A DNA stretch of 64,000 bases from positions 3,806 through 67,805 of the forward strand of contig DAOUAN010000154.1 in the NCBI GenBank assembly GCA_034433385.1. Direction: 5' to 3'. The notes under the pieces are model-generated. The model made no database searches, had not been told where the DNA came from, and worked only from the letters and a program-made list of their open reading frames with translations. Both the position numbers and the translations under genes were made by a program. This DNA comes from Anaerolineales bacterium. GTDB taxonomy: Bacteria; Chloroflexota; Anaerolineae; Anaerolineales; Villigracilaceae. Of the stretch, positions 3,601 to 52,790 are shown piece after piece; position 1 is the first letter of the stretch, and each line of letters starts with the position of its first letter.

Positions 3601-4573
3601 CATAGTCGAGGCGCTGGCGGATTTTTGGGTCGGAGGCCTTGTTTCCGTAGCGACGTTGCAATCCCTGTTCACACAGATGGCGCAGATAAGTCTCAGCGGT
3701 GTGCCCTTCAGGGACGGGGAATTCGGGCAGGTGGTAGCCCTTGAAGGACAGGTCCACATGGCAACGCTCGGCGATGAGCAGGGTATTGCTGAGCGCCTCA
3801 GGGACTTCGGCGAAGAGGGCGGCCATCTCCTGCGGGGTGCGCAGGTAGTAAGAGGCATCGGTCATCCGCATCCGATCGGGGTCGGAGAGCGTGGAGTTGG
3901 TTTGGATGGCGAGCAAAATGTCCTGGAGGCGGGCGTCTTCAGGGTTAATGTAATGGACATCGTTGGTGGCTACATAGCGGGCTTCGTAGCGTGCGCCTAA
4001 TTCAACCAATTTGCGGTTCAAGTCGGTGATTTCTTTGATGTTGTGGTGCTGCAGTTCGACAAAGAAGCGGTCGCGGCCAAAGACATCAAAGTACCAGTTC
4101 ATGCGGCGCACGGCTTCTTGAGGATTTTCTTCGAGCAAGGCGCGCGGAATTTCGGCGGACATGCAGCCGGTGGTGCAAATCAGCCCTTCAGAGTGGGCGG
4201 CCAGAAATTCGTGGTCAATGCGTGGATAGTAATAAAAGCCCTGAAGCTGGGCGGCGGAAGCAATTTTGAGCAGGTTCTTGTAGCCGGTCTCGTTTTCGGC
4301 CAGCAGCAGGAGATGATAGGATTTTTTGTCTAACTTGGGGTCGCGGTCGGTCATGCCGCGTGCCGCCATGTAAGCCTCCAGCCCAATGATCGGCTTGATC
4401 CCGGCGGCAGTAGCGGCATTGTAGAAGTCAATGACACCGAACATCGTGCCGTGATCGGTGATCGCAACCGCGGGCATGTTCAGTTCTTTGACGCGTTTCA
4501 CCAGCTTCTTGATGTTGGAGAAGCCATCAAGCAAGGAGTATTCGGTGTGGACGTGGAGGTGAGCAAATGTCAT
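686..4573 (-). CDS. dnaE: DNA polymerase III alpha subunit with a C-terminal extension of about 230 aa
   Basis: N-terminal PHP motif MTFAHLHVHTEYSLLDG, a long pol III alpha core and an OB fold (VRVAGLITSIRPYQTKTGKPMGFVTLED). I moved the start to the ATG at 4573 instead of the ORF-track start at 4609. Confidence 0.95.
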   Translation of the reverse strand: MTFAHLHVHTEYSLLDGFSNIKKLVKRVKELNMPAVAITDHGTMFGVIDFYNAATAAGIKPIIGLEAYMAARGMTDRDPKLDKKSYHLLLLAENETGYKNLLKIASAAQLQGFYYYPRIDHEFLAAHSEGLICTTGCMSAEIPRALLEENPQEAVRRMNWYFDVFGRDRFFVELQHHNIKEITDLNRKLVELGARYEARYVATNDVHYINPEDARLQDILLAIQTNSTLSDPDRMRMTDASYYLRTPQEMAALFAEVPEALSNTLLIAERCHVDLSFKGYHLPEFPVPEGHTAETYLRHLCEQGLQRRYGNKASDPKIRQRLDYELRVIHDMGFDAYFLIVWDLCRHARENGIWYNARGSAAGSIVAYSLEITMVDPIEHDLIFERFLNPGRISMPDIDLDFRDDRRSEMLEYCAHKYGDDKVAQIITFGTMGTKAALRDVGRVMDIPLSEVDRLAKLVPFVSGKTVTMEDALAVPEFKQMYESTPYMRELVDTAAKMEGTVRNAGTHAAGVVISDRPLVEYLPLHRPTSNAEDTPIKTVTQFEMGILESLGMLKVDFLGLATLTVMARACALIEKRHGVHFDLSNIPLDDPKAFELLGNGQTLGVFQLEGGGMTRWLVQMKPQTLDHVIAMVALYRPGPMQFIPDYIARMHGEAEVEYRHEALRPIFQDTYGIPVYQEQLMNAAVQLAGYTQSEADDLRKAIAKKIAEKLQKHREKFVKGAAKKGIPEDVANQIFSDWEEFARYGFNKSHAADYGVIAVQTAYLKAHYPAEYMSSLMSVTRNETEKVALYIADARSMGIPVLPPDINASHWDFTIEDLPQGPAIRFGFGAIKNVGEGAVNVILSARGNEPFKDLNDFARRVDLRAVGRRALECLIKVGALDRFGNRAALLAALERIISVSASHFRAAQAGQLSLFGETTGVTETIALPEATEVDRREMLNWERELIGLYISDHPLTPYQPTLVKVVSHFSSQLAEAAHEEKVRVAGLITSIRPYQTKTGKPMGFVTLEDIQGNIELVLFSRTWGKYAAQIAVGQIIIVEGKVDAQSSPPKVLVDDIKTEFKMVIAADEENADPAPPSPDSALKPQPTPQPRRAPAPPPPTADLTPPPPPPAEDWAEDDMPPPPEAFPPGWEEEWQPTFEAASLAARPESPEPPRRMETLRVESPAAKTESASSPGGEALLLASSMGGAESPVRLPSLYMPFVTENVNERPPRQITIFLRPSGDRQRDKRRIRTIYGTLISYHGRDRFSFQIFEEGKGHLIDFPNDTTRICPELLERLKRLMGEENWRVEEITLQ

Positions 4574-26102: not shown

Positions 26103-26160
26103 AGTGTAGACCGTAGACGATGGACGGTGGACGGTCTATGGTCTACCGTCTACCGTCCAT
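26103..26160. repeat. Heptad-periodic palindromic repeat element (copy A), filling the pdxS-pdxT spacer
   Basis: GTAGACC GTAGACG ATGGACG GTGGACG | GTCTATG GTCTACC GTCTACC GTCCATG: four heptads followed by four heptads of the complementary type. ATGGACGGTGGAC can pair with GTCTACCGTCCAT. Confidence 0.75.
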
Positions 26161-39848: not shown

Positions 39849-40208
39849 CTACGAATCGAAATCTTCATTCTCATCGTCGCCTGGGTCAAATTCATAAGCC
39901 ACTTGCTCCTGATCCAGGTAAACCCACAAGAGCAATACCTGGCCTTCGGGCGTATCCACATTGCGAGCCGCCAGAATGGGGGCACTCTGTTCCAGGCCCA
40001 TGTCGTTGCGGTAGTGCAGATGAATGGGCAGCTGATTGTGCCAGGCACGATAACAACGCTCTACCAACGCCGGGCCGTTGAATGTGCGCAAACGCGTCAG
40101 CGCCGGTACCAAAAGGCGCGGTCCCTCGCTCAAACCCATTGCCCACCCATCCTGTACCTGTTCAAATACGGGGGGCGGTCCTTCAATAATTGTGATTCTA
40201 TCGTCCAT
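39849..40208 (-). CDS. Hypothetical protein with an acidic C-terminal tail
   Basis: ORF with its likely start at MDDRITIIEG (ATG 40208). No recognised motif. Confidence 0.4.
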   Translation of the reverse strand: MDDRITIIEGPPPVFEQVQDGWAMGLSEGPRLLVPALTRLRTFNGPALVERCYRAWHNQLPIHLHYRNDMGLEQSAPILAARNVDTPEGQVLLLWVYLDQEQVAYEFDPGDDENEDFDS

Positions 40209-40278
40209 AAAGTCTCTTCTTTCTGGCAAAATCATACCACAAAATGACTATTCCTCCATTTCCGATTCCGAAACCTAT

Positions 40279-40697
40279 CCTAAGCTTTGTGCAATCAAGA
40301 GCGATTTCATGAAAAACGCTTCGAAAGTGAAAATTTTCAGCGGTTGGGTTACAGGTTGCCTCCATCCGCTTTCGTGGGAGGGATGCAGAGGTGCTCTTGT
40401 CCCGTCTGGTGCTTCCAACACCCCATCCCCCCGCCCCCTTCCCCGCAGACTGGTGACGCGTACGGCATATGCCTTTTGCGGGGAAGGGGGATGGAGGCTG
40501 CGGAGGGAAGGGGCGCCGTGCGCCCCTTCCCTCCGCCGGGCTTTCCCCTCCCCCGTCCGAGCGATGAACGTTGCGCTGCATGGGTTCACGGACGGGAGAG
40601 GGGCAGGGGTGGGGGCAGGCCGTGAAGATGGCAAGTGCAAAATCTCATCCCTGAGGTCGTTTTTCATGCTTTGTCCGCCAATTGCACAAAAGTTAGG
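40279..40697 (+). mobile_element. MITE-like element, long copy (419 bp) with an internal hairpin-rich insertion
   Basis: The left end is CCTAAGCTTTGTGCAATCAAGAGCGATTTCATGAAAAACGCTTCGAAAG. The right end is CTGAGGTCGTTTTTCATGCTTTGTCCGCCAATTGCACAAAAGTTAGG. The ends are imperfect inverted repeats (TTTTGTGC ... ATGAAAAAC). The core CTCCATCCGCTTTCGTGGGAGGGATGCAGAGG is shared with 61369-61652. Confidence 0.7.
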
Positions 40698-40709
40698 TTA
40701 TCAACTGTT

Positions 40710-40850
40710 GGTTCGCTCATTTTCAGAAGAGTTTTCCAGATTCGCCTTGATTTGTCTTACTCGCCTACGTTTGGTGCCATCAGGAGCGATTTACTGAAAA
40801 AGGCTTCGAAAGCAAAAATTCTAAAAACCGGCTTAAAAAATGAGCGAACC
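40710..40850. repeat. Perfect 14-bp inverted repeat bracketing the solo MITE end
   Basis: GGTTCGCTCATTTT (40710-40723) and AAAATGAGCGAACC (40837-40850), 113 bp apart. Confidence 0.5.
40764..40835 (+). mobile_element. MITE-like element, solo left end
   Basis: CCTACGTTTGGTGCCATCAGGAGCGATTTACTGAAAAAGGCTTCGAAAGCAAAAATTCT matches the left end of the copies at 61369 and 40279. No right end is present. Confidence 0.55.
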
Positions 40851-40878
40851 ATGAGGATCAGTTCGGTATAATGCAGCC

Positions 40879-41223
40879 ATGTACAAACTCGTCATCCTTT
40901 TTCAGCAACCGTTCGCCTGGCAAAACTTTCAACAGGGTTGGCAAAAATTCATGGGACTGGCTGAGCAAATGCCCGGCCTCATACGTGAGACGGTCGGCGA
41001 TGTGGAGCAAATGCTCTACGGCCCCGAAATCCAACGTTTTGCCAAAATTCATGAGCTGTATTTCGAATCGCGCCAGGCGCTGGAGACTGCCCTTCGCTCC
41101 GAGGCAGGGCAGGTTGCCGCTCGCTGGCTGCACGAATTTGGGCGCGGTCGCTTCATCCTCCTCATCGTCGAACACAAAGAAGCTTCTCCCAGCGACTTCA
41201 AAGCCCGGACACAATCTCCCTGA
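40879..41223 (+). CDS. EthD-domain family protein
   Basis: MYKLVILFQQP... small alpha/beta protein pattern (114 aa). Its 3-prime end overlaps the pyrD 3-prime end by 26 nt (convergent). Confidence 0.5.
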   Translation: MYKLVILFQQPFAWQNFQQGWQKFMGLAEQMPGLIRETVGDVEQMLYGPEIQRFAKIHELYFESRQALETALRSEAGQVAARWLHEFGRGRFILLIVEHKEASPSDFKARTQSP

Positions 41224-42274
41224 CCAGCCCAGGGCCGCGATACACCAGGCCGGTGAAGATTTGCACCAGGGTTGCACCCATCTCCAGGCGGCGCCGGGCG
41301 TCGAATGCGCTCATGATGCCTCCCACGCTGATGATGGGGATTCTCCCCTCCACCCGCTTCACAATTTGTCTCAAGGCCGCCTCGCTCTGGACCCGTAGCG
41401 GGCTGCCGCTTAATCCGCCGGCTTCTCCGCCCCATGCCGAGCGCAGCCCCGGCCGCGCCAGCGTGGTATTGGTGGCGATCACCCCATCCATGCCCGTAGC
41501 CAGGATCACACCCAGGGCCTCGTCCAGTTCACCTTCGGAGAGATCGGGAGAGAGTTTGACCAGGAGCGGGAGGCGTTTTTGCAGTCGGGCTTCTTCCAGC
41601 CGGCGTTGACGGTGCAACTCGCTGAGCAAACCCTCCAGGGCAGGGCCTCCCTGCAAGGCGCGCAGGCCAGGGGTGTTCGGTGAACTGACGTTGATGGTCA
41701 GGTAATCGGCATAGGGGGCAAAATTTTGAATCAGGCTCAGGTAATCAAAGACGGCCTCTTCGTTGGGGGTGTTCTTGTTTTTGCCCAAGTTTACGCCGAG
41801 AATGGCCGCCCATGGGCGGCGCGGGGGGCGCCGTCGGCGGGGTTGACCGCTGATTTTTTCCAGCCACCCCGTTTGAAGTCCGGGGTTGAGGCGCATTTGG
41901 ACGAATTCGGCCCCTCGGCTGGGGAATCCCATCCGGTTGATGATCGCTTCGTCTTCTACCAGGCGGAACACTCGCGGTCGTTCGTTGCCCGGCTGCGGCA
42001 ACGGGGTGACTGTGCCGATCTCGATGTGTCCGAAGCCCAGGGCAGAGAGCCCGCGGATGGCCAGGCCGTCTTTATCGTAGCCGGCGGCCAGTCCCACCGG
42101 GTTTTTGAAGGTGAGGCCAAAGGCGGTGACCGGTCGCGCCGGCGCCTGGAACAGCTTGGCGATCAGCCAGTTGACGGGTGGGAGGGAGCCGCTCAGGCGT
42201 AGCAGGGTGAGGGTGAGTTGGTGTGCCTGTTCGGGGTCGAGGCGAAAGAGCCAGGGGCGCAGGGTGGAATACAT
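41198..42274 (-). CDS. pyrD: Dihydroorotate dehydrogenase (quinone), class 2
   Basis: LFRLDPEQAHQLTL N-terminal helix region, GFGHIEIGTVTP, NVSSPNTPGLRALQ and GGI...A. Confidence 0.9.
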   Translation of the reverse strand: MYSTLRPWLFRLDPEQAHQLTLTLLRLSGSLPPVNWLIAKLFQAPARPVTAFGLTFKNPVGLAAGYDKDGLAIRGLSALGFGHIEIGTVTPLPQPGNERPRVFRLVEDEAIINRMGFPSRGAEFVQMRLNPGLQTGWLEKISGQPRRRRPPRRPWAAILGVNLGKNKNTPNEEAVFDYLSLIQNFAPYADYLTINVSSPNTPGLRALQGGPALEGLLSELHRQRRLEEARLQKRLPLLVKLSPDLSEGELDEALGVILATGMDGVIATNTTLARPGLRSAWGGEAGGLSGSPLRVQSEAALRQIVKRVEGRIPIISVGGIMSAFDARRRLEMGATLVQIFTGLVYRGPGLVREIVSGL

Positions 42275-42786
42275 CAGAATTTCTTTTGCCCGCTCAGGTT
42301 GAGGAAGTATTGGATGACTTCTTCTTCCGGGTGAGGCACGTCCATCAGAGCAAACATGGCGGCCAGCTCGCCGCGGTGATGGGTGTTGTGGTTGATGACG
42401 TGCATCAGCATTTGCCAGAGGGGCACGTGAAAAGTCTCGCCGCTAAAGTTCTGGTAGGTGATTTCTTGTTGCAGGCTTTCTTCTGTTTGGGAACGTACAA
42501 AGGAGAGCAGGGTCTGTTCGTGTTCCGCCCAGCGAGTGCGCAAGGATGCCAGGGTGGGGAAGTCTTCTTTGGGCAGGTGTCCTTTGGGAGATGTGCCATT
42601 CCAGCGTTGGAACCAGACCCATTCACTGCTGAACATGTGCACCAACACGGCGTGCACGTCGCCCCAGCTGTGGCCGTGGGGGCGGTGTAATTGTTCCGGG
42701 GTGAGGGTTTCGGCGACGGCCAGGTAACGGTGATTGGCCCAGGAATTGTATTCGTACAGGTGTTGGAGATAGGTAGTAAGGTTCAT
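42274..42786 (-). CDS. DinB family (four-helix bundle, metal-binding) protein
   Basis: YNSWANHRYL...HMFSSEWVW...HVINHNTHHRGELAAM. Its stop overlaps the pyrD start (TGATG). Confidence 0.8.
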   Translation of the reverse strand: MNLTTYLQHLYEYNSWANHRYLAVAETLTPEQLHRPHGHSWGDVHAVLVHMFSSEWVWFQRWNGTSPKGHLPKEDFPTLASLRTRWAEHEQTLLSFVRSQTEESLQQEITYQNFSGETFHVPLWQMLMHVINHNTHHRGELAAMFALMDVPHPEEEVIQYFLNLSGQKKF

Positions 42787-43391
42787 GATGCCTCTAAAAA
42801 TCTTCTACTTGCCTCGATTTTATCCTTTTCCACTTTTCCGTTTTGTTCCCAGTAATCCAGCCATTGGCTGATAGTGGCTACGGCGTGCAGGCGCAGGCCG
42901 GCCTGGGCCAGGGCTTCCTTGGCGCCAGATTGGCGGTCAATCAGCACGACGATGTCGCGCACAAGCAAGCCGGCAGCGGTCAGTTTTTCGATGGCTTCGA
43001 ATTTGCTCCCGCCGGTGGTAGCGAGATCGTCTATGATCACGACGGTTTCGCCGGGGTGATATTCGCCCTCGATGGCGGCTTTCGTGCCGTAGTCTTTGGC
43101 TTCTTTGCGCGGGTAGATCATCGGGTAATTGCCTTGCAGGGAGATGGCAGTAGCAATGGGAATGGCGGCGTAGGGCAGGGCGGCCAGGCGGTCGAACGAC
43201 AGCGTTTGCAGAATTGGCAGGTAAGCGGCAGCGACCTGCTTCAGCAGAGGCGGGTGCGAGATGAGTTGGCGCAGGTCAATGTAGATGGGCGATTTCAGCC
43301 CCGACTTGAGGGTGAATTCGCCAAACTTGACGCAGCCGGCGGCGAGCAGGCCGTCGGCGAGGGAGGAAAGGGGGGATGGTTGGTCGCTCAT
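42783..43391 (-). CDS. pyrE: Orotate phosphoribosyltransferase
   Basis: FTLKSGLKSPIYIDLR and the PRPP loop VVIIDDLATTGGSK. Confidence 0.9.
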   Translation of the reverse strand: MSDQPSPLSSLADGLLAAGCVKFGEFTLKSGLKSPIYIDLRQLISHPPLLKQVAAAYLPILQTLSFDRLAALPYAAIPIATAISLQGNYPMIYPRKEAKDYGTKAAIEGEYHPGETVVIIDDLATTGGSKFEAIEKLTAAGLLVRDIVVLIDRQSGAKEALAQAGLRLHAVATISQWLDYWEQNGKVEKDKIEASRRFLEAS

Positions 43392-44860
43392 GGAAGGGGA
43401 TGCCGTAAATCGTAGATGATGTAACCTGGTTTTTGCACAAGGATATTGTACTTGTTTAACTGTTCCTGTAAGGCTGGTTGATGAGCCAGTTCGGCGAGAT
43501 CGGTCACCAGGAAGTAGGATTTCTGGCGTGTCTGAGCGGCAAAAGCCTGCGGGATGTCTTCATCCGGGGATGTCTTCCACAGGATCACGTTTTGCCAGCC
43601 ATAATAGAACAGTGGATAACCATAATCGGCTGTCAGGGCCACGACGCCGGGCTGGTGTTGGAGCGTTTCGCCGATTTCAGCATACATTTGGGCAAGAGGA
43701 CGGTTGTCGCGGCGACGCAGGGTCAGGTATTCCTGGGTGGTGAAGAAGAGCAGGAAGAGCACAAGAATCGCAAAAAAGGTGGCTCTGTGTGGCTTTCCCG
43801 GCAAGCGGGCGAGAGCTTGCTCGACAAATGCTGAAGCAAGTGGAGCCAGCCCGATGGCGGTGATGGGGATGAGCGGCAGGCTGTAATAGTCATGGCTGGC
43901 AATGTGGTAGGTTTGAAGCAGGCCAAAGAGGAAGTAAAACAGCCAGAGGGAGAGCAGGAAACGGCGCATGGGGCGACTGACAAAGGCCAGCAGGCTCACC
44001 GCGGTCAGCGCCAGGAAGAGGAGGGGGATAACGTTATCCAGTTTGTCCAGCCAGCGCAGATAAAAGGTAGGGGAAAACCACCAGGAAACAATGGTACGCC
44101 CGCGAAATGCTCCCCTCAGAAAGCCGCGCCCGAACAGGCCATCATAGAGATATAAGCCGCCGGGCAACACGCCGAGGAGAATCACCAGCCACGTGGTAGG
44201 ACGCCTGAGCACCGGGAGAAATTGGCTGCGTGCCAGGGATAACCCGATAGCCCCACCGACGACGAAGAAGACGGCGGTCAATTTGATGTAAATATCCAGG
44301 CCACCTGCCAGGCCGGCCAGGATAGCCCAGCGCCAGTCCTCTGGCTGTTGAATCCAGTGGTCAAATGCCCACCAAAAGGCGAGCAGGAAGAGCACCATCA
44401 GCGGGTCTGGCTGGAAGGAACGGCTGGCATCTACGCCATAGGGCAGAAACAGGTAGAAGAGCAGAGCAGCCAGGGCAGCGATAGGTGATGCGGTCAGGTT
44501 GACCGTCAACAGGTAGAGGAAGAAACCGCCAGCGATCCAGAAGAGACCAGATAAGGCGCGGCCAACGGCCGGCGTTTCGCCTGTCCAGCGATAGAGAAAG
44601 GCGGTCAGATGCTCCAGAATAAGCGGTTCGAGCTGAGCCTCGCGAGCCAGGAAGCGCTCCGACAGGTCGCGTTGCCAGGGTGGGGTATCGGGGGCGGTTT
44701 GTTGATAAAGGGCGCGGGCGCGAATTGCGCCAAAGAATTGACGGGTGGGGTGAAAATCGAGCGGCGGGTTGCTGAGATCAGCAAGGCGCAAGAGCAAGCC
44801 GAGAGTGAAAGCCAGGATCAAAAGAAAGGGTAAAGCAAATTTTGCCAGTGCGGATCTCAT
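43388..44860 (-). CDS. GT-C (ArnT/PMT-like, GT39-type) membrane glycosyltransferase candidate
   Basis: 490-aa polytopic protein whose N-terminal region, LLLRLADLSNPPLDFHPTRQ, is typical in layout of lipid-carrier-dependent glycosyltransferases. 4-nt overlap with pyrE. Confidence 0.6.
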   Translation of the reverse strand: MRSALAKFALPFLLILAFTLGLLLRLADLSNPPLDFHPTRQFFGAIRARALYQQTAPDTPPWQRDLSERFLAREAQLEPLILEHLTAFLYRWTGETPAVGRALSGLFWIAGGFFLYLLTVNLTASPIAALAALLFYLFLPYGVDASRSFQPDPLMVLFLLAFWWAFDHWIQQPEDWRWAILAGLAGGLDIYIKLTAVFFVVGGAIGLSLARSQFLPVLRRPTTWLVILLGVLPGGLYLYDGLFGRGFLRGAFRGRTIVSWWFSPTFYLRWLDKLDNVIPLLFLALTAVSLLAFVSRPMRRFLLSLWLFYFLFGLLQTYHIASHDYYSLPLIPITAIGLAPLASAFVEQALARLPGKPHRATFFAILVLFLLFFTTQEYLTLRRRDNRPLAQMYAEIGETLQHQPGVVALTADYGYPLFYYGWQNVILWKTSPDEDIPQAFAAQTRQKSYFLVTDLAELAHQPALQEQLNKYNILVQKPGYIIYDLRHPLP

Positions 44861-44875
44861 ACGTAAAGTATAGGC

Positions 44876-46102
44876 CTATTTCCAGATCATCAGTTGAATC
44901 CAGGCGATTCCGATGACCAGCGAAAGGATGGTGATCACCAGCCCGGATTTGGTGTATTCCCAAAAGGTCAGTTTGATGCCGCGTTTGGCGGCGCTCTCGG
45001 CGACGATGAGGTTGGCCACCGAACCGAGCAGGGTCAGGTTGCCGGCCAGGGTGGAGGCAGCGGCCAGGGTCAGCCAGCCGGCGGTGGGGTCCGCCAGATG
45101 GGTCACGGCCGGGCGGAGGAGCAGCACAGCCGGCACGTTGGAGACCAGGTTCGACATGATGACGGTGATGAGCGAAAGTCCGGCGGCGCCTTTCTGGAGG
45201 AAGGGAGCCAGGGCGGCGAAGATGCCATCGGTGAGGTGGTTCAACTCGATGACGCCGGTCAGGATGAACAGGGCGGCGAAGAAGACCAGCAGATTCCAAT
45301 CTACCTCGTTCATCACCTTTTCCGGGCGGACGCGGCGGGTGAAGAGCAGCACGGTCGCCGCCACGAAGGCCGCCTCGGCAATCGGCACGCCGAGGATGAA
45401 GGCCAGGAGCAATCCGGCGGTGACGATCAGGCTCTTGGTGAGCAGGGGGCGGAAAACGCGCGGCTCAGGGATTTCCACACGGTCGAAGTGCCCACGGGAA
45501 AATTCGGCGGGATAAAACAAAACCAGCACCAGCCAGATGACTCCCAGGCCGAGCAGGGCAATCGGGGTCAGGGCGGCGGCGAATTGCAGGTAGGAAAGCC
45601 CGGAAGCGATGCCGATGATCATGTTCTGCGGGTTGCCGGTGAGCGTGGCCACCGAGCCGATGTTGGCCGCCGTCGCCAGGGCGATCAGGTAGGGGATGGG
45701 GTTGCGTTTAGCCGTCAGAGTCACATCCACGATGAGCGGTGTGAGCATGATGCAGATGGTATCGTTCAGGAACAGGGCGCTCAGCACCCCGGCAACCAGG
45801 ATTTCCAGCGCCAGCAGGCTGCGCGGCGAGCGGGTGAACCTGAGAATGGACGCCCCTGCCAGGCGGAAAAAGCCGGCCAGTTGCAGGTTGGCGTTGATAA
45901 TCATCATCCCGAAGAGCAGGACGAGGGTGTTGATTTCCAGCAAGTTGCCTAGCTGTTTGAAGTCGAGCAAGCCCAGGCCGAGCAGCGCGCCGACGCCGAT
46001 GAGCGTCAGGGTGGTGCGGTTGACGCGCAGGCCTGGGTAGCCGCCGATGGCGATGCCGAGGTAGGTGAGGGTGATGATGATAGCGGTGAGGTAGAAGGTC
46101 AT
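44876..46102 (-). CDS. ArsB/NhaD-superfamily anion permease
   Basis: 408 aa, about 11-12 TM segments, and duplicated GNPQN-like and SNLVSNVPAV motifs typical of this permease superfamily. Confidence 0.65.
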   Translation of the reverse strand: MTFYLTAIIITLTYLGIAIGGYPGLRVNRTTLTLIGVGALLGLGLLDFKQLGNLLEINTLVLLFGMMIINANLQLAGFFRLAGASILRFTRSPRSLLALEILVAGVLSALFLNDTICIMLTPLIVDVTLTAKRNPIPYLIALATAANIGSVATLTGNPQNMIIGIASGLSYLQFAAALTPIALLGLGVIWLVLVLFYPAEFSRGHFDRVEIPEPRVFRPLLTKSLIVTAGLLLAFILGVPIAEAAFVAATVLLFTRRVRPEKVMNEVDWNLLVFFAALFILTGVIELNHLTDGIFAALAPFLQKGAAGLSLITVIMSNLVSNVPAVLLLRPAVTHLADPTAGWLTLAAASTLAGNLTLLGSVANLIVAESAAKRGIKLTFWEYTKSGLVITILSLVIGIAWIQLMIWK

Positions 46103-46103
46103 G

Positions 46104-46138
46104 GTTCAGTATTCAGTATTCAGTGTTCAGTGGTCAGT
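46104..46138. repeat. Tandem heptamer array (5 x RTTCAGT)
   Basis: GTTCAGT ATTCAGT ATTCAGT GTTCAGT GGTCAGT. On the mRNA strand these are ACTGAAY units, each carrying a TGA. The array spans the last four pyrF codons, the pyrF stop and nearly all of the 24-nt spacer before the permease ATG. Confidence 0.8.
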
Positions 46139-46996
46139 GGGAGGGCGGAGGGCGAGAATCTGGTCGCGCAATTCGGCCGCGGCCTGACCGGGATTTTCGG
46201 CGCGCGAGATGCCGCGCGAGACGTTGATGAGCAGCCCATTGCCGTCTGCCCGCAGGCCGAGGCGGAGGGCGGTCTCCAGGTCGCCGCCCTGGGCGCCGAC
46301 GCCGGGGACGAGGAACCACAAATCCGGCGCAGCGGCGCGGAGGCGGGCGAGGGCTTCGGGGTGTGTCGCCCCGACCACCAGGCCGAGGTTGTTGCCGGTA
46401 TTCCATTGTTGGGCAAGATAGGCAACATGCTCATACAAGAGAACAGACCCTGGACGGTGGACCGTTGACTGTGGGTCATCAACTGCTGTCCACTGTCCAC
46501 GGTCTACGGTCAGGTCTTGCAAATCACCCGCCCCGGGGTTGCTCGTCTTGCAGAGCAGGAAGACGCCCTTGCGCGGGTTTTGCAGGAACGGCTCGACCGC
46601 GTCGCGGCCCAGGTAGGGATTGACGGTGAGCGCGTCCGCGCCGAGGGTCTCGAAGGCGGCGCGGGCGTAGGCCTCGGCCGTGGAGGCGATGTCGCCGCGC
46701 TTGGCGTCCAGAATGACGGGAATCTGCGACCCGAGGCGGGCCGATTCGGCATGGACGGCATCAATCACATCCTTGAGCGCCGTCCAGCCCGCCGCGCCGA
46801 AGACCTCGAAGAAGGCCGCGTTGGGCTTGAAGGCCGCGGCGTAGGGAGCGGTCTGTTTCACGAGATTCAGGCAGAAATCCCGCGCCGCATCGGCGCTGGG
46901 GGCGGGGAGATCGCCCGGGTGCGGGTCGAGGCCGACGCAGAGGAGCGAGGCGCAGTCGTCCACCCGCTTTTCGAGGAGGGTGAAGAAGGTTTCCAT
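46127..46996 (-). CDS. pyrF: Orotidine 5-prime-phosphate decarboxylase (type 2), with a repeat-derived in-frame segment
   Basis: LCVGLDPHP, ILDAKRGDIASTA, KTSNPGAGDLQDL and VPGVGAQGG. Confidence 0.85.
   Translation of the reverse strand: METFFTLLEKRVDDCASLLCVGLDPHPGDLPAPSADAARDFCLNLVKQTAPYAAAFKPNAAFFEVFGAAGWTALKDVIDAVHAESARLGSQIPVILDAKRGDIASTAEAYARAAFETLGADALTVNPYLGRDAVEPFLQNPRKGVFLLCKTSNPGAGDLQDLTVDRGQWTAVDDPQSTVHRPGSVLLYEHVAYLAQQWNTGNNLGLVVGATHPEALARLRAAAPDLWFLVPGVGAQGGDLETALRLGLRADGNGLLINVSRGISRAENPGQAAAELRDQILALRPPTDH
46450..46512. repeat. Heptad-periodic palindromic repeat element (copy C) inside the pyrF coding sequence
   Basis: Nine heptads: CTGGACG GTGGACC GTTGACT GTGGGTC ATCAACT GCTGTCC ACTGTCC ACGGTCT ACGGTCA. 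That is 63 nt, or 21 codons. It encodes most of LTVDRGQWTAVDDPQSTVHRP (22 codons, of which the element covers 21). Confidence 0.65.
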
Positions 46997-47010
46997 GATG
47001 TTTTTTATCT

Positions 47011-47094
47011 GACGGTGGACAGTAGACGGTAGACGGTGGACCTTTTACCATCTATGCTCTACGGTCTACGGTCTATGGTCTACGGTCTATGGTC
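47011..47094. repeat. Heptad-periodic palindromic repeat element (copy D), filling the pyrB-pyrF spacer
   Basis: GACGGTG GACAGTA GACGGTA GACGGTG, a spacer, then CTCTACG GTCTACG GTCTATG GTCTACG GTCTATG GTCA. The right end abuts the pyrB stop codon (47093-47095). Confidence 0.8.
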
Positions 47095-48076
47095 ATGCTT
47101 TGCCCAACACCATCGCCAGCAGCGCCATGCGGACGTAGAGGCCGTATTCCATCTGGCGGAAGTAGGCGGCGCGGGGGTCGTCATCGAAAGCGGGGTCAAT
47201 TTCGCCGACGCGCGGCAGGGGGTGCATCACGATCATTTCTTGTTTGGCGGCTTTCATGATTTCGGGGGTGATGACGTAGGCGCCTTTGACCTTTTCGTAT
47301 TCCGCCGGGTCTTCGAAGCGTTCTTTCTGGACGCGGGTAACGTAAAGCACGTCGGTTTGGGGCAAGACTTCGTCGAGGGTGGTGTATTCGGCCTGGGGGA
47401 TGCCCTTGGCCGCCACCTCGTCCATGACTTCGCGCGGCATGCGCAGGATTTCGGGCGAGACGTAGTTGATTTTAACATCGTAGAGCGAGAGCAGCCGCGC
47501 CAGCGAGTGGACGGTGCGCCCGTATTTCAGGTCGCCGAGCATGGTGATCGTCAGGCCGTCCACTACGCCGACGCCGAGTTCTTCGAAGATGGTGAACAGG
47601 TCGAGCAGCGCCTGGGTGGGATGCTCACCGATGCCGTCGCCGGCGTTGATGATCGGCTTTTTAGCGGCGCGGGCGGCGATCTCGGCCGAGCCGGTTTCGG
47701 GGTGGCGCAGGACGATCACATCGGCATAGCATTCCAGGGTGCGGACGGTATCGGGCAGGCTCTCGCCCTTGGCCACCGAGGAATAGCGCACCTCGTTGAT
47801 GGGAATGACGCTGCCACCGAGTCGCTCCATGGCAGCGGTGAAACTGGAGGAGGTGCGCGTGGAGGGTTCGTAGAACAAGTTGGCGAGGATTTTGCCCTTC
47901 AGCAAGTCGAACGTGCCGATGCGCTCGACCATGCCGCGCATTTCGTGGGCGACGCCGAAGATGTATTCCAGGTCGGCGCGGGTAAATTGTTTGACGGATA
48001 GGATGTCTTTGCCGTACCAGTCGGCTTTTTTATTTTCGCCGAAGGGCAGGTGGGGGGAAAGGGAAGGGGTAGGCAT
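47093..48076 (-). CDS. pyrB: Aspartate carbamoyltransferase catalytic subunit
   Basis: [12 protein letters not shown] (STRT), HPTQALLD and HPLPRVGEI. Confidence 0.93.
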
Positions 48077-48164
48077 GGGGTATCTCCTTGGGTCAAGTAA
48101 TCAGGTAGTCACTTCGTCGGGTGAGCGCGTAGTCTCATAGTGCGTGGTTGCCTGGGTGGTGATT

Positions 48165-49268
48165 TTATTGCCAGCATTCCAGTTGTTCGAAGGGCTCAGG
48201 GCGCTGTTCACGGAGATTGAGGCCAAAGCCGGCGGGGACGAGGATCTGCCCATCGCGGTAGGCCTCGCGGCCGCGCAAGACGACACGAATCACGCGACCC
48301 CGTGCCGGCCAGCCCTCGAAGGGCGTCCAGCCACACTTTGAGTGCAACTCGCTCGCCCGAATCTCCCAACGGGCGTTCTCATCTATCTCGATCCAGGTTT
48401 CGGGCTGTTCGGGGAGCGAGAAAATTCTGCGGGGATTGACCACACATTTCTGAATAATATCGTCTACCGTCAACCGTCCATCGTCCGATGCTGTGAGCAG
48501 GAGAGGAAGCATCGTCTCCAGGCCGGGGAAGCCGGGCGGCGGGTTCTCGCCGTCCTTTTCGGCCAGGGTGTGCGGGGCGTGGTCAGTGGCAAAGCAATCA
48601 ATGACATCGAGATTCTGCCAGAGGGCGTCCACATCGGCCTGGCAGGCCAACCGCGGGCGGACTTCGCCGCGGCCGGGGTGTCCGTGCGAGAGGGCGGGGA
48701 TGTTATCGGCGGTCAGGAAGAGATGGTGCGGCGTCACCTCGCAGGTGACTTTCACGCCGCGGGCTTTGGCCTCGCGGATGAGCAGAATCTCCTCGCGCAG
48801 GGAGACGTGAGCGATGTGAACAGGTTGATCGAACATCTGCGAGAAGGCCAGGGCGGCGGCCATGCTGCGGCTCTCGGCGTGGACGACGATGGGGCCGGGG
48901 CCACGCCAACGGCGGAAATGATCCAGCCACAGGGTCATGTCGTTCAGGCGTAGTTCGCCAAAGGTGGAGTCGAGGTACATTTTCAAGGCGGCAGCGTAGG
49001 GGGCCAGAGAGGCAACCTCGGCGGCGTTTTCGGGGCCGGCGCCGAGGTATTGGGCGTAGTCACACCGCGCCTTTGAACGAGCCGCTTCCAGGGCCGAATC
49101 GAGGGTGAATTGGTCGAAGATCGGCGGTTTGGTGTTGGGCATGGCGAGAATGGTGGTCACTCCGCCAGCGAGGGCGGCCTGGGTGGCGGTATCCCAGTCT
49201 TCCTTGTGGGTCTGACCGGGTTCGCGCACGTGGACGTGGGGGTCAATCAGTCCGGGAAGTCTCATCAT
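48165..49268 (-). CDS. pyrC: Dihydroorotase
   Basis: GLIDPHVHVREPG metal-binding motif with downstream conserved His/Asp (DHAPH). The start is set at ATG-ATG 49268/49265. The ORF-track start at 49307 is a TTG inside the leader terminator. Confidence 0.88.
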   Translation of the reverse strand: MMRLPGLIDPHVHVREPGQTHKEDWDTATQAALAGGVTTILAMPNTKPPIFDQFTLDSALEAARSKARCDYAQYLGAGPENAAEVASLAPYAAALKMYLDSTFGELRLNDMTLWLDHFRRWRGPGPIVVHAESRSMAAALAFSQMFDQPVHIAHVSLREEILLIREAKARGVKVTCEVTPHHLFLTADNIPALSHGHPGRGEVRPRLACQADVDALWQNLDVIDCFATDHAPHTLAEKDGENPPPGFPGLETMLPLLLTASDDGRLTVDDIIQKCVVNPRRIFSLPEQPETWIEIDENARWEIRASELHSKCGWTPFEGWPARGRVIRVVLRGREAYRDGQILVPAGFGLNLREQRPEPFEQLECWQ

Positions 49269-49287
49269 CAGATAGTCTTGTGGAGGC

Positions 49288-49316
49288 AAAAAAAGAGAGC
49301 CGATCAAACGGCTCTC
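49288..49316 (-). terminator. Intrinsic terminator in the pyr operon leader (attenuator candidate)
   Basis: The minus strand reads GAGAGCCG-UUUGAU-CGGCUCUC followed by UUUUUUU. It ends about 20 nt upstream of the pyrC start. Confidence 0.65.
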
Positions 49317-49398
49317 TCAGGGAACGAAAACAGCGGACAAAGCAATCGGTTGAGGAAGAAAACATCGTAAGTGTAAAAATGAGACCATATCGGGCGGG

Positions 49399-49426
49399 AT
49401 TATAGGCAGGATTGCGAATCTGTCAA
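49399..49426 (-). promoter_or_regulatory. Consensus sigma-70-type promoter of the pyr operon
   Basis: The minus strand reads TTGACA (49426-49421), a 16-nt spacer, then TATAAT (49404-49399). Confidence 0.6.
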
Positions 49427-49450
49427 GGGCAAAATTTGATCATGATATAA
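49423..49450 (+). promoter_or_regulatory. Possible promoter giving a leaderless or near-leaderless dsbA-like mRNA
   Basis: TATAAT at 49445-49450 lies 7 nt before ATG 49458. There is a weak -35, TCAAGG, 17 nt upstream. No SD. Confidence 0.35.
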
Positions 49451-49457
49451 TGCGCGC

Positions 49458-50195
49458 ATGGATGAGCGTTCTGTTTCCCGAGAAGATGTAGTTGTATTCA
49501 AACGCAGTTATTTCTATGCGTTGATGGTCGTGCTGGCATTTGCTGCCGGGGTACTGGTTGGGTATGTCGCCTGGGGGCGAGAGAGCGCCACCTCGAGACG
49601 GGGTCAGGCCGTTGGTCCGGTAGCCGAGGCGCCTTATGAGACGCCTGAGCCGAAATACACGCGCTACGAGATTCCGACGGATGGTTTTCCCAGCCTGGGT
49701 CCGCAGGATGCGCCGATCGTGATTGTGGAATTCAGCGACTATCAGTGCCCGTATTGCCAGCGCTGGCATCAGCAAACGTTCAAGCCTTTGCTGGCAGCCT
49801 ATCCGGGAAAGATTCGCCTGGTCTATCGCAATTTGCCACTGACATCGATTCATCCGGAAGCCTATTCGGCGGCGGTGGCGGCCTTGTGTGCCAATGAGCA
49901 GAATGCGTATTGGCCTTATCACGACAGGCTGTTTGAGGGGCAATATGGCCTGGGGCCAGAAGTTTACACCCAATACGCGGCCGATTTGGGCCTGGATATG
50001 ACTGCTTTTCAGGAATGCCTGGCGAGCAAGCGTTATGATCAGTTTGTTCAGGAAGATATGAAATTTGCCATGAATTTAGGGGTGCGCTCTACCCCAACGT
50101 TTTTCATCAATGGTCTGGCTGTGGTGGGAGCGCAACCGCTGGATGTCTTCAAGCAGATTATTGACAAAGAATTAGCGGGAGAAATTCCAAAGTAA
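49458..50195 (+). CDS. DsbA-family thiol:disulfide oxidoreductase with an N-terminal membrane anchor
   Basis: EFSDYQCPYCQRW (CxxC) thioredoxin fold, with the anchor YFYALMVVLAFAAGVLVGYVAW. Confidence 0.8.
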   Translation: MDERSVSREDVVVFKRSYFYALMVVLAFAAGVLVGYVAWGRESATSRRGQAVGPVAEAPYETPEPKYTRYEIPTDGFPSLGPQDAPIVIVEFSDYQCPYCQRWHQQTFKPLLAAYPGKIRLVYRNLPLTSIHPEAYSAAVAALCANEQNAYWPYHDRLFEGQYGLGPEVYTQYAADLGLDMTAFQECLASKRYDQFVQEDMKFAMNLGVRSTPTFFINGLAVVGAQPLDVFKQIIDKELAGEIPK

Positions 50196-50201
50196 GCGTT
50201 G

Positions 50202-50226
50202 GGGCGGGAAAACCCGCCCTTTCTTG
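50202..50226 (+). terminator. Rho-independent terminator after the dsbA-like gene
   Basis: GGGCGGG-AAAA-CCCGCCC followed by TTTCTTG. Confidence 0.65.
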
Positions 50227-50407
50227 TGGCAATTTTGGGCTTGTGTAGCCTGAATGGCTGTCCTACCGACGGTTTGATGTGCTGGTGTGCCTGGCAAGAG
50301 CAGGCTTTCCATTTGTTTGCTGTCCGTTGTCCGCCAGGAGACTTCCGAAGTCTGCGTGGAGGATACGGGGCAGCATGGTTAAACTTCCCTGAGGAGCCAT
50401 TGTGTTT

Positions 50408-51073
50408 ATGAAAAAGTTTGTGGCTGTGGCCGGAAATATCGGCGTAGGAAAATCTACCCTGGTGACGATGTTGTGCGACCGCCTGGGGTGGGAGCCTTTC
50501 TATGAACCGGTGGCGGAGAATCCCTACCTGGCCGATTTTTATGCTGATATGTCCTCCTGGGCCTTCCACTCCCAAATTTTCTTCCTGGCGCATCGTTTGC
50601 GGGCGCATCATCAGCTGGCCTTACGCCCGACTTCGGTCATTCAAGATCGTAGCGTGTACGAAGATGCCGAGGTCTTTGCCCGAAACCTGTTCTTGCAAGG
50701 GTTTATCCAGCCGCGCGATTATCAGACATATCGCGAACTGTATGAAACGGTGATGGCTTTCCTACCGCCGCCCGACCTGGTGATTTATTTGCGCGCCTCG
50801 GTTCCGACCCTGCTCAGCCGCATTTCGTTGCGCGGCCGCGAATACGAGCGCACGATTTCGGCGGAGTATTTGCACAGTTTGAATCGGCTTTACGAGGATT
50901 GGATCAACAATTTTACGCTCTGTCCCGTGCTCGCCGTGCCCGCCGATGATTTGAATTATGTGGCGCATCCCGGACATTTGAATCTGATCGCTGCCAAAAT
51001 GGTGGAAAAACTGACCGGGAAAGATGAAGTGGTTTTCGATGCCGATGAGGTGGCGCGGGCTGCCGAAGATTAG
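50408..51073 (+). CDS. Deoxynucleoside kinase, paralog 2
   Basis: KKFVAVAGNIGVGKSTL P-loop, then YEPVAENPYLADFYADMSSWAFHSQIFFLAHR. The start could also be ATG 50402. Confidence 0.85.
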   Translation: MKKFVAVAGNIGVGKSTLVTMLCDRLGWEPFYEPVAENPYLADFYADMSSWAFHSQIFFLAHRLRAHHQLALRPTSVIQDRSVYEDAEVFARNLFLQGFIQPRDYQTYRELYETVMAFLPPPDLVIYLRASVPTLLSRISLRGREYERTISAEYLHSLNRLYEDWINNFTLCPVLAVPADDLNYVAHPGHLNLIAAKMVEKLTGKDEVVFDADEVARAAED

Positions 51074-51861
51074 GCAAATACCTCCGACGAGAGAGCGGCC
51101 TCAATCAGTGGATTGAGGTCGTTTTCTTTGATTGCCTCTCCAATCGTGAGCCAGGCCAAGAATTCTGTATTTCCCTTTGGCCCCAAAATGGGCGAACGGA
51201 TGAGACCTCGCACCTGCCACCCCTGGGCCTGGGCAAACGTCAAAACGTCGCTCAACACCTGACGATGAATTTCCACATCGCGAATCACGCCCTTACCGCG
51301 CGCCACCTCGCGCCGACCCGCTTCAAATTGGGGCTTTATGAGAGCAATCACCTCTCCATCTTGCAGCCAGCGATGCACAACTGGCAGCAACACTTTGAGT
51401 GAGATGAACGAGGCGTCTATGGTCACCAGTGAAACCGGTTCGGGCAGCTGCTCCAGATGACGGGCATTGGTCTCTTCGAACAGCACCACGCGGGGATCGT
51501 TGCGAAGTTTCCAGTGCAATATTCCTTTTCCCACGTCAATGGCATAGACGCGCGCCGCGCCGTGTTGCAGCAAACAATCGGTAAAGCCGCCAGTCGAGGC
51601 CCCCACATCGGCGCAGATGCGCCCGCTTACATCCAGCCGAAAAGCACGCAAGGCAGCCTCCAGCTTTTCGCCGCCGCGCGAGACGTAACGGGGGCCGCTT
51701 TCCACACGAATTTCGCTTCCTGCGCTTACCGCAGTGGCTGGCTTGAGTACCATTTCCCCATCCACACGCACCTGTCCGGCCATGATCAGCGCCTGGGCTT
51801 TGGAGCGCGATTCGGCCAGCCCCTGTTCCACCAGCAAGACATCCAGACGTTTTTTGGTCAT
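51070..51861 (-). CDS. tlyA: TlyA-family rRNA 2-prime-O-methyltransferase (S4 plus FtsJ domains)
   Basis: KRLDVLLVEQGLAESRSKAQALIMAGQVRVDG (S4) and DVGASTGGFTDCLLQHGA (SAM motif). The start is set at MTKKRLD (ATG 51861). Confidence 0.85.
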   Translation of the reverse strand: MTKKRLDVLLVEQGLAESRSKAQALIMAGQVRVDGEMVLKPATAVSAGSEIRVESGPRYVSRGGEKLEAALRAFRLDVSGRICADVGASTGGFTDCLLQHGAARVYAIDVGKGILHWKLRNDPRVVLFEETNARHLEQLPEPVSLVTIDASFISLKVLLPVVHRWLQDGEVIALIKPQFEAGRREVARGKGVIRDVEIHRQVLSDVLTFAQAQGWQVRGLIRSPILGPKGNTEFLAWLTIGEAIKENDLNPLIEAALSSEVFA

Positions 51862-51920
51862 AAGTAAATTGTAATGCGGAAACAAAATCTGAACGAATGC
51901 TGGTAAGGTAAAATTACTTT

Positions 51921-52790
51921 ATGTTTAAGGCACTATTCAAGACCATGCGGCCCAAACAGTGGGCGAAAAACGTTTTCATCTTCGCTGCCCTGGTGTTTGA
52001 CCGAAAATTAACCGACCCCCAGGCCATCCTGCACACCGTTGCCGGGGCAATTTTGTTCAGTTTGCTGGCCAGCGCAGTTTACATCATCAATGACATTAAC
52101 GATGTGGAGGCTGACCGCAATCATCCGCTCAAACGCTACCGACCGATTGCTGCGGGCACATTGCCCATTCCGCTGGCCGGGCTTTTTGCCAGCTTGCTGC
52201 TCGTCGTTTGCCTGCCTCTGGCCTACTGGCTCTCGCCGGCCTTTGCCGGGATTTCTTTGTTTTACTTTTTGCTCAACTTGGCCTATTCGCGCTGGATCAA
52301 GCATGTGGTGCTGATGGACATCATCGTCCTGGCTTCTTTCTATGTCATCCGCGTAGCCGCCGGGGTGACGTTGATTCAGGTGCAGCGTTTTTCTCCATGG
52401 ATCTACATCTTCACCATTTTTCTCTCCCTGCTCATTGGCACCGGCAAGCGCCGCGCCGAATTGGCCGAACTGGCCGGCTCGGCCAACAACCAACGCCGCG
52501 TGCTGGATGGTTACACCCTGAACTTCCTCGACCAGCTCATTAGCCTGGCATCGGCGGTGACCATTGTCACCTATAGTCTGTACACATTTTCGGCCGTCAA
52601 TTTGCCTGAAAATCATGCCATGATGCTCACCATTCCTTTCATCATCTATGGCGTGATGCGCTATCAGTACCTGTTGCAGGTGGCTAACCGCGGCGGCGCT
52701 CCCGAAGAGGTGGTATTGTCCGATCGACCTCTTCAGGCAGCAATTGTCTTGTGGGGCCTGGCGGTGCTGCTCATTTTTTATCTTTCTTGA
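51921..52790 (+). CDS. UbiA-family prenyl/phosphoribosyl transferase (decaprenyl-phosphate phosphoribosyltransferase-like)
   Basis: MRPKQWAKNVFIFAALVF start and YIINDINDVEADRNHPLKRYRPIAAG (NDxxDxxxD). About 9 TM segments. Confidence 0.75.
   Translation: MFKALFKTMRPKQWAKNVFIFAALVFDRKLTDPQAILHTVAGAILFSLLASAVYIINDINDVEADRNHPLKRYRPIAAGTLPIPLAGLFASLLLVVCLPLAYWLSPAFAGISLFYFLLNLAYSRWIKHVVLMDIIVLASFYVIRVAAGVTLIQVQRFSPWIYIFTIFLSLLIGTGKRRAELAELAGSANNQRRVLDGYTLNFLDQLISLASAVTIVTYSLYTFSAVNLPENHAMMLTIPFIIYGVMRYQYLLQVANRGGAPEEVVLSDRPLQAAIVLWGLAVLLIFYLS

Follow-up and report, generated by a model that had tools for sequence, protein, structure and literature searches.

A translated heptamer-repeat hairpin at an insertion-prone loop of the pyrimidine enzyme PyrF in Anaerolineales

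How a palindromic array of seven-base repeats can lie in frame within the gene of an essential enzyme, and what keeps it recognisable there, is the question raised by the pyrF gene of an Anaerolineales bacterium (assembly GCA_034433385.1). The window, which is the whole stretch of DNA analysed here, comprises 64,000 nucleotides of contig DAOUAN010000154.1 and includes the following features, each given with the basis for its assignment:

26104-26160 (no strand assigned): third palindromic element of GACNGTN heptads, filling the pdxT-pdxS spacer (repeat search of the window)
46103-46141 (minus strand): one-armed array of ACTGAAC/ACTGAAT heptads, encoding the last PyrF residues and supplying the TGA stop at 46127-46129 (repeat arrays)
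46127-46996 (minus strand): pyrF, the host gene, encoding a type-2 orotidine-5'-phosphate decarboxylase of 289 amino acids (TIGR02127 profile match and Leishmania OMPDC 3qw3/3qw4)
46449-46469 (minus strand): right arm of the element in pyrF, three complementary heptads GTCAACG GTCCACC GTCCAGG, with pairing that continues to 46440 (inverted repeats I1-I3 and fold)
46470-46483 (minus strand): spacer and hairpin loop region of 14 nt, GTTGATGACCCACA, not a heptad repeat (sequence and fold)
46484-46511 (minus strand): left arm, four heptads GACCGTA GACCGTG GACAGTG GACAGCA, encoding (L)TVDRGQWTA (sequence and TRF)
47011-47094 (no strand assigned): intergenic heptad palindrome of GACNGTN flavour, filling the pyrB-pyrF spacer and beginning at the pyrB stop codon (repeat arrays and relatives)

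The host protein belongs to the type-2 OMP decarboxylases. Its ORF (46127-46996, minus strand) matched the TIGR02127 profile with 262.1 bits, above the curated cut-off of 110.6, and its AlphaFold model (pLDDT 84, pTM 0.85) had the normal TIM-barrel fold of ODCase, with 54% identity and a TM-score of 0.8-0.9 to the Leishmania OMPDC structures 3qw3/3qw4. The GC content was 0.48-0.57 across 46400-46520, which covers the element and its 3' flank, compared with approximately 0.70 in the remaining pyrF, and this counts in favour of reading the segment as a repeat at the nucleic-acid level.

The element occupies 63 nt of the minus strand at 46449-46511, in frame within pyrF, and encodes T163-P182. 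A preliminary description had correctly recognised a heptad palindrome in frame at this locus, although its coordinates (46450-46512) were one base off. Read along the coding strand from 46511 to 46449, the left arm is followed by GTTGATG ACCCACA and then by the right arm. Of the nine heptads described there, 1-4 are a true period-7 array (detected by TRF) of GACNGTN type and 7-9 are the complementary arm, whereas the nominal heptads 5-6 are a spacer without repeat, in which an inner 6-bp stem GUUGAU/GUCAAC is predicted to close an 8-nt loop. Pairing spans 46440-46517, with arms of 30 nt that are 77% complementary, and the first units of the left arm coincide with the host codons for L-T-V-D. 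The architecture attributed earlier to intergenic copies as well is borne out at 47011-47094 and 26104-26160, which have the unit and the two-armed layout in common with the pyrF element. In sequence only the unit is common to the three copies; the number of units differs, and there is no shared spacer, end or target duplication.

The pyrF element is an insertion relative to the family. It lies at the tip of a PyrF surface loop, approximately 10 residues past the KTSNPG strand, and alignment with Leishmania UMP synthase 3qw4 (54% identical) leaves a clean 18-residue gap opposite DRGQWTAVDDPQSTVHRP. The 11 short-loop loci found among Anaerolineales species have 8 residues at the site, with the conserved turn motif x-L-x-[DN]-G-x (e.g. 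ITLADGDL), which agrees with the earlier expectation that other type-2 OMP decarboxylases are short here. The ortholog comparison and the structure model that had been proposed as checks both gave the predicted outcome, with 17-18 extra residues relative to the short-loop orthologs and the Leishmania structure, and with the insert falling in a low-confidence loop of the AlphaFold model (residues 167-182, within the insert, have pLDDT below 50). The translated insert of approximately 17-18 residues is probably a disordered excursion, which the enzyme would appear to tolerate.

Neither chance nor assembly readily accounts for the palindrome. The 96-nt element region folds at -41.1 kcal/mol, compared with -26.6 ± 3.5 kcal/mol for dinucleotide shuffles (z = -4.1, with 0 of 200 shuffles as good), and its best ungapped single hairpin scores 13, whereas 200 length-matched segments of the same gene average 6.7 and reach 8.5 at most. 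Period-7 arrays numbered 55 in 1.28 Mb of related genomes, compared with at most 10 for any other period from 4 to 12 at equal stringency, and GACVGTR arrays were found in at least 120 metagenome contigs. Two independent assemblies made from other sequencing runs agree with the window at every base of the CDS, the element and both flanking arrays, which rules out an assembly artefact, and no length polymorphism of the repeat was seen across the three independent assemblies.

A plain comparison of minimum free energy with segments of the same gene was dropped as a statistic (window z = -1.1; 7 of 56 inserts below -2.5), since GC-rich coding sequence folds well anyway, and the single-hairpin score was therefore used instead.

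Comparison of 80 species-level loci, all from Anaerolineales or Chloroflexota MAGs, showed that the segment between DLQD and LYEHVA is hypervariable, ranging from 8 to 31 residues. In a family-wise scan, at least 4 extra residues were present at this one site in 60 of 75 Anaerolineales pyrF orthologs, and 26 of the 60 inserts were significantly palindromic; the reading frame was kept in all 75. Palindromic inserts were absent from the other two variable pyrF sites in the same 75 orthologs, and from pyrB (54 orthologs), fam4 (29) and fam6 (17). About half of the insert-bearing pyrF loops are not significantly palindromic, including those of a large clade with LLVMPMGSDMPMP, a 13-residue loop, and these could be either inserts that have decayed or ordinary sequence. 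Among the best 120 database homologs a count of 109 was obtained, which does not represent a frequency, since these candidates were picked by shared words and are biased toward the loop type of the query.

The insert is neither private to this genome nor recent, but old and shared in this lineage. The one-off insertion implied by the preliminary description is contradicted by most Anaerolineales orthologs, which have an equally long loop. That description had also reasoned that an equally long loop in repeat-free relatives would make the resemblance coincidental; that condition does not apply, as the relatives concerned are not free of repeats and their loops are themselves heptad palindromes in their DNA.

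The families that occupy the site are unrelated to each other. They include GACNGTN and GACCATN heptads (with peptides TVDGGQW...STVNGPRS and TIDHRPL...SIVHRPSS), GAAAGAG and GAAAGTG heptads, a CCCTCAC type, REP-like GTAGGGGC...GCCCCTAC hairpins (GTAGGGGCGGAC/GTCCGCCCCTAC) and AGACTTCNGAAGTCT. Even among eight relatives with 83-90% protein identity and the same gene order, insert family and length differ: heptad inserts of 51-78 nt were counted in seven, and L084 and L085 have an AGACTTC element instead. Insert types are scattered across an NJ tree of pyrF, from which gain counts are unreliable as the tree derives from a single protein of approximately 270 residues. The pyrF site is a hot spot at which hairpin repeats of several families have been gained, resized and replaced.

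Conservation within the heptad-type loops was examined in ten loops from different species, chosen as alignable, with the structure derived from the same ten. Third codon positions in the skeleton were 0.90 identical, compared with 0.39 in the arms outside the skeleton and 0.43-0.45 in the well-conserved pyrF flanks. When all third positions of the arms were pooled, identity rose only a little (0.57 vs 0.45), the signal appearing after the split by heptad register, and amino-acid identity of the loop was 0.64 in the left arm and 0.39 in the right arm, compared with 0.78 in the flanks. As the third positions of the skeleton are conserved while the loop peptide is variable, the constraint is on the nucleic acid, in the register of the repeat and not of the codon.

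Base pairing in the same ten orthologs follows this register. The 18 arm-to-arm pairs form in 96% of 180 cells, compared with 9-56% of cells in slid registers; 9 of the 18, in the GAC/GTC triplets, never vary in the ten species at approximately 70% protein identity, and three show compensatory GC<->AU changes. The covariation score was 0.153, which 5 of 500 shuffles reached, vs 0.115 in the shuffles, and a peptide-level proxy for one pair across 79 loops gave an odds ratio of 9.3 (p = 1.5e-5, uncorrected for phylogeny). The consensus hairpin has a folding term of -13.4 kcal/mol, with helices of 3 and 2 bp broken every heptad.

The nearest precedent for a heptamer array in a functional gene is provided by the STRR units inside the RNase P RNA gene of heterocystous cyanobacteria. 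Heptameric simple-sequence repeats comprise the cyanobacterial STRR, the GGGAATC-type repeats of Xanthomonas and Nostoc and the TAACTGA repeats of Beggiatoaceae (PMC4692102, PMC4679880), and the present repeats resemble them in having tandem 7-base units, a period-7 excess, positions next to gene ends, occasional inverted pairs and fast change between relatives. Those repeats are described in the same two papers as essentially intergenic direct repeats, whereas the pyrF copy has inverted arms and is a two-armed hairpin translated within the coding sequence of an essential enzyme.

The Rickettsia palindromic elements (RPEs) are palindromic repeats found both between genes and in frame within the genes of working proteins, according to the relevant passages of PMC3733652, and the parallel with them drawn in the preliminary description is fair as an analogy, as in both cases a palindromic repeat lies in frame in an ORF that stays open and adds a tolerated peptide. 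RPEs are however sequence-defined families of Rickettsia, ending in CGTC per these passages, whereas the pyrF element is 63-80 nt of tandem heptamers in Chloroflexota, without a conserved core or ends. The copies in the window differ in spacer and unit number and share only the heptad unit, rather than a consensus over the whole element, and several families are found at the pyrF site, which is filled in most species of an order.

The GTAG/CGTC-tagged intragenic REPs (Di Nocera et al. 2013) are, in the same passages of PMC3733652, mostly extragenic and in some cases coding, with dimers that encode 20-30 residues, and GTAG REPs are reported there in Chloroflexi. Some species carry REP-like GTAGGGGC...GCCCCTAC hairpins at these same sites in pyrF and pyrC. 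The element in the window has periodic arms with a mismatch every heptad, and would probably not correspond to the one stem-loop of 20-40 bp, tagged at an end, that characterises REPs; the GTAGACG units of some copies do include GTAG and CGTC, which are periodic there and not terminal, and other unit variants lack these tags. Recurrent use of one orthologous site is not mentioned for REPs in those passages of PMC3733652. MITEs are defined by a length of 70-300 bp, terminal inverted repeats and a target-site duplication, whereas the element is 63-78 nt long and wholly hairpin, and common termini or target duplications were found neither among the copies in the window nor among the relatives. 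The Borg tandem repeats, in the part of PMC9879509 that describes them, likewise arise in frame in DNA, evolve fast and encode disordered segments, although they are direct repeats and not hairpins.

By analogy with these systems, the element would work like RPEs and intragenic REPs while being built like heptameric simple-sequence repeats and STRRs, and would be a member of neither RPEs nor intragenic REPs. In the open-access literature searched, we found neither heptad hairpins translated as parts of proteins nor repeated colonisation of a single orthologous coding site across an order.

The best reading of these observations, to which we assign a probability of roughly 0.5, is that PyrF tolerates, at an insertion-prone loop, a hairpin of heptamer repeats that maintains itself. 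Directly supported are its anatomy, its in-frame position, its insertion relative to short orthologs and a solved structure, its recurrence at one site and its conservation in heptad register. The repeat would exist at the nucleic-acid level, with arms of tandem heptamers of the skeleton GAC-N-GT-N paired with their complement, and the pyrF element would belong to the same family as the intergenic copies of this genome. Since 7 and 3 are coprime, each of the three frames of a heptad array yields the same heptapeptide, and neither the GACNGTN unit nor its complement contains a stop triplet, so that any total length that is a multiple of 3 stays open. This rule explains the variants of 51-78 nt and removes the earlier argument that the insertion owes its viability solely to the divisibility of 9 x 7 by 3, an argument that fails on other grounds as well, two of the nominal heptads being spacer, the left arm being partly made of the host codons L-T-V-D, and close relatives carrying versions of 51, 69, 75 and 78 nt, in which the total length modulo 3 is what matters.

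Selection would then act on total length modulo 3, and the heptad version may be kept recognisable by the dynamics of the repeat itself, rather than by any benefit to the protein. Upkeep could involve replication slippage among units, a step based on the heptamer slippage hypothesis cited in PMC4692102 and PMC4679880, together with correction between the hairpin arms, and the element may well have no function. Arrays in pyrF and in a FolC-like gene start at host V-D-G codons (GTGGACGG), which is suggestive of seeding in situ but does not demonstrate it, and this reading was set aside. The invariant GAC/GTC pairs (9 of 18) bear a closer resemblance to sequence-specific constraint than to drift under molecular drive, and the orthologous pyrB-pyrF spacer arrays change flavour fast while the coding copy does not, which argues against maintenance by drive.

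Insertion of a mobile hairpin element (REP/REPIN-like or MITE-like) by a transposase, for example a RAYT-type tyrosine transposase, is an unlikely alternative, in which the hot spot would reflect a target preference for a small palindrome at the beta-turn codons. Some families at the site are demonstrably dispersed among genomes, as identical palindromes are found in different genes and genomes: the 28-nt REP-like palindrome GTAGGGGCGGACGGCCGTCCGCCCCTAC is present both in the pyrF loop of L064 and in an E1-like ORF of L071, and the 33-nt doublet AGACTTC[CG]GAAGTCT x2 is present in the pyrF loops of L026, L068 and L085 and in an intergenic position in L023, whose own pyrF site is short. The pyrF loop of L064 is a single perfect 12-bp hairpin, GTAGGGGCGGAC-GGCC-GTCCGCCCCTAC, where its sister species L051 has a REPIN-like doublet of two hairpins with the same GTAG...CTAC ends, suggesting that the repeat expanded or collapsed in place. 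Both REP tags given in the passages of PMC3733652 on these repeats are present in the unit GTAGACG, GTAG directly and CGTC in the complement, and at the turn of short-loop DNA there is a small palindrome, TCGCC-GAT-GGCGA, although the short-loop hairpins were significant in 0 of 11 cases.

The REP-like and AGACTTC families lend good support to transposase-mediated insertion, whereas the support is poor for the heptad copies, which have no shared ends or core. The heptad copies in the window, with the unit as their only common part, have no spacer, ends or target duplication in common, and the heptad-type loops found in different species have the appearance of inherited sequences that have since diverged. 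Loop 11-mers in the 20-kb flanks were at chance level, giving no local sign of dispersed copies.

A selected nucleic-acid signal within the coding sequence is possible but doubtful, whether as an mRNA hairpin that modulates transcription, processing or translation of the pyr operon, or as GAC/GUC triplets at heptad spacing to which an oligomeric protein with affinity for RNA or ssDNA would bind. This explanation agrees with conservation that tracks the heptad and not the codon register, with GAC/GTC triplets that are invariant in 10 species, with the compensatory GC<->AU changes, with a second hairpin hot spot in the neighbouring pyrC and with a T-rich tract, UCUGUUCUCUUGUAU, after the hairpin. 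HutP, which binds UAG-N4 repeats, and CspB, which binds heptamer repeats, are precedents for repeat-binding proteins. Binding of heptamer repeats by CspB is also cited in PMC4679880. A selected signal is harder to reconcile with the presence of at least 11 species without any insert and of a large clade whose 13-residue loop is non-palindromic, with the unrelated sequences of the families at the site, and with the weakness of the consensus hairpin (-13.4 kcal/mol, with helices broken every heptad). A search of 40000-52000 with the Rfam 15 covariance models, including PyrR sites, gave only sub-threshold, hairpin-like chance matches, the operon already has a candidate leader attenuator of conventional type, and a FolC-like gene outside the pyr pathway has the same kind of insert.

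The internal hairpin was also considered as an intrinsic terminator and rejected, the match being a weak one of 5 bp and terminator-like sites not being enriched (6 found vs 4.2 expected).

A more far-reaching proposal, which we consider improbable, is that the GAC-N4/GTC-N4 skeleton is a conserved signal superimposed on the coding sequence, acting as a binding array or a programmed hairpin, with the beta-turn codons of pyrF, pyrC and the FolC-like gene as the specific places where heptad hairpins of a class not yet described would dock or be seeded. Phase variation, in which the gain or loss of one heptad would shift the frame of pyrF and create reversible pyrimidine auxotrophs, is very improbable: units of a length not divisible by 3, when repeated inside a CDS, are the hallmark of contingency loci, and heptamers are slippage-prone under the hypothesis cited in PMC4692102 and PMC4679880, but there are only 3-4 imperfect units per arm, the allele is identical in three samples, without the length polymorphism that would switch the frame, 75 of 75 orthologs are in frame, and pyrF is a housekeeping gene. 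A native protein loop with a coincidental resemblance to the repeat is hardly credible, as the many orthologs with similar loop length and peptide are outweighed by the hairpin and period-7 statistics, by synonymous positions conserved in heptad register, which contradict it, by peptides that literally translate (GACGGTG)n and (CACCGTC)n, and by the absence of the loop from short-loop orthologs and solved structures.

In-frame palindromic 'selfish DNA' has so far been described mainly from Rickettsia and from scattered intragenic REPs. In the present case a repeat of another kind, a tandem-heptamer hairpin, is translated in an essential enzyme, and several families fill a single codon-level site across most species of an order. 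The locus provides a comparative system for asking whether a coding hot spot for hairpin DNA arises through targeting or tolerance, and why heptamer repeats are so over-represented in some bacteria, a question that synonymous conservation in the repeat register makes testable by synonymous recoding. Such loops also inflate apparent protein divergence, and the recurrent peptides TVDGGQWTVD, STVHRPPS and VGADGRPPLP should not be taken for domains.

A second hot spot for in-frame hairpins is present in the dihydroorotase gene pyrC, between CEV(C/T)PHHLFL and GR.EVRPRLA. Inserts were found at this site in 16 of 48 orthologs (L004, L009, L010, L017, L038, L039, L051, L069 and others), and 9 of the 15 tested were significantly palindromic, whereas the pyrC of the window (48165-49307) has no insert. 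The insert families match those of pyrF, including the CCCTCAC type, REP-like GTAGGGGC and CCCTCCCCCATTTTC. The pyrC gene of the window also contains a heptad-phased segment, GGACGAT GGACGGT TGACGGT AGACGAT (48458-48486, minus strand), with GAC every 7 nt, which encodes the conserved PyrC peptide DDGRLTVDD. Orthologs use GGA for the Gly of this peptide in 13 of 18 cases (24% gene-wide) and TTG for its Leu in 12 of 17 (19% gene-wide), so that synonymous sites preserve the heptad register in a stretch that is native to the protein.

Upstream of pyrC, at 49283-49426 (minus strand), lies a candidate leader attenuator of the pyrBI style, with a perfect TTGACA-16-TATAAT promoter and a T-rich leader ORF of 23 codons (MVSFLHLRCFLPQPIALSAVFVP), the TGA stop of which overlaps the 5' stem of a 10-bp hairpin followed by TTTTTTT. 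Three adjacent GC-rich palindromes are present at 40434-40603 (plus strand), namely CCCCCTTCCCCGC...GCGGGGAAGGGGG, GCGGAGGGAAGGGGCGC-CGT-GCGCCCCTTCCCTCCGC and CCCCTCCCCCGTCCG...CGGACGGGAGAGGGG, in DNA that is probably non-coding and that has only sub-threshold, miRNA-like Rfam matches.

In-frame heptads of GACAGTG type precede LQIPLLG.HQ.ENA in FolC-like ORFs, which are assigned to the folylpolyglutamate synthase family by sequence motifs only. Among metagenome contigs, L125 has a full two-armed element at approximately 3948-3971 (TVDSGQWTVDGGQSVNGLRSTVN), and L137 has the right arm only (HRPPSTV) at approximately 3203-3226.

The arrays on either side of the coding element vary among relatives. 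The one-armed array at 46103-46141 adjoins the ATG of the next gene, which encodes an ArsB/CitMHS-like permease, and its ACTGAAC/ACTGAAT flavour is kept in relatives, with differences in copy number and point variants. In the intergenic palindrome at 47011-47094, as in the pyrF loop of L003, the central heptad base is the same on one strand in both arms (GAC-G-GTA vs TAC-G-GTC), and this constant central base produces a strand-asymmetric G.G (or C.C) mismatch every 7 nt in the hairpin. A heptad element with two arms lies in the pyrB-pyrF spacer of nearly all the close relatives compared (L081-L088), that of L082 having one arm, and the units are GACCGTA (window and L088), ACACCTG (L081, L084 and L087), CAACCTT (L083), CAACGTG (L085) and AACAGGT (L086), so that the architecture of this spacer is kept while its sequence turns over.
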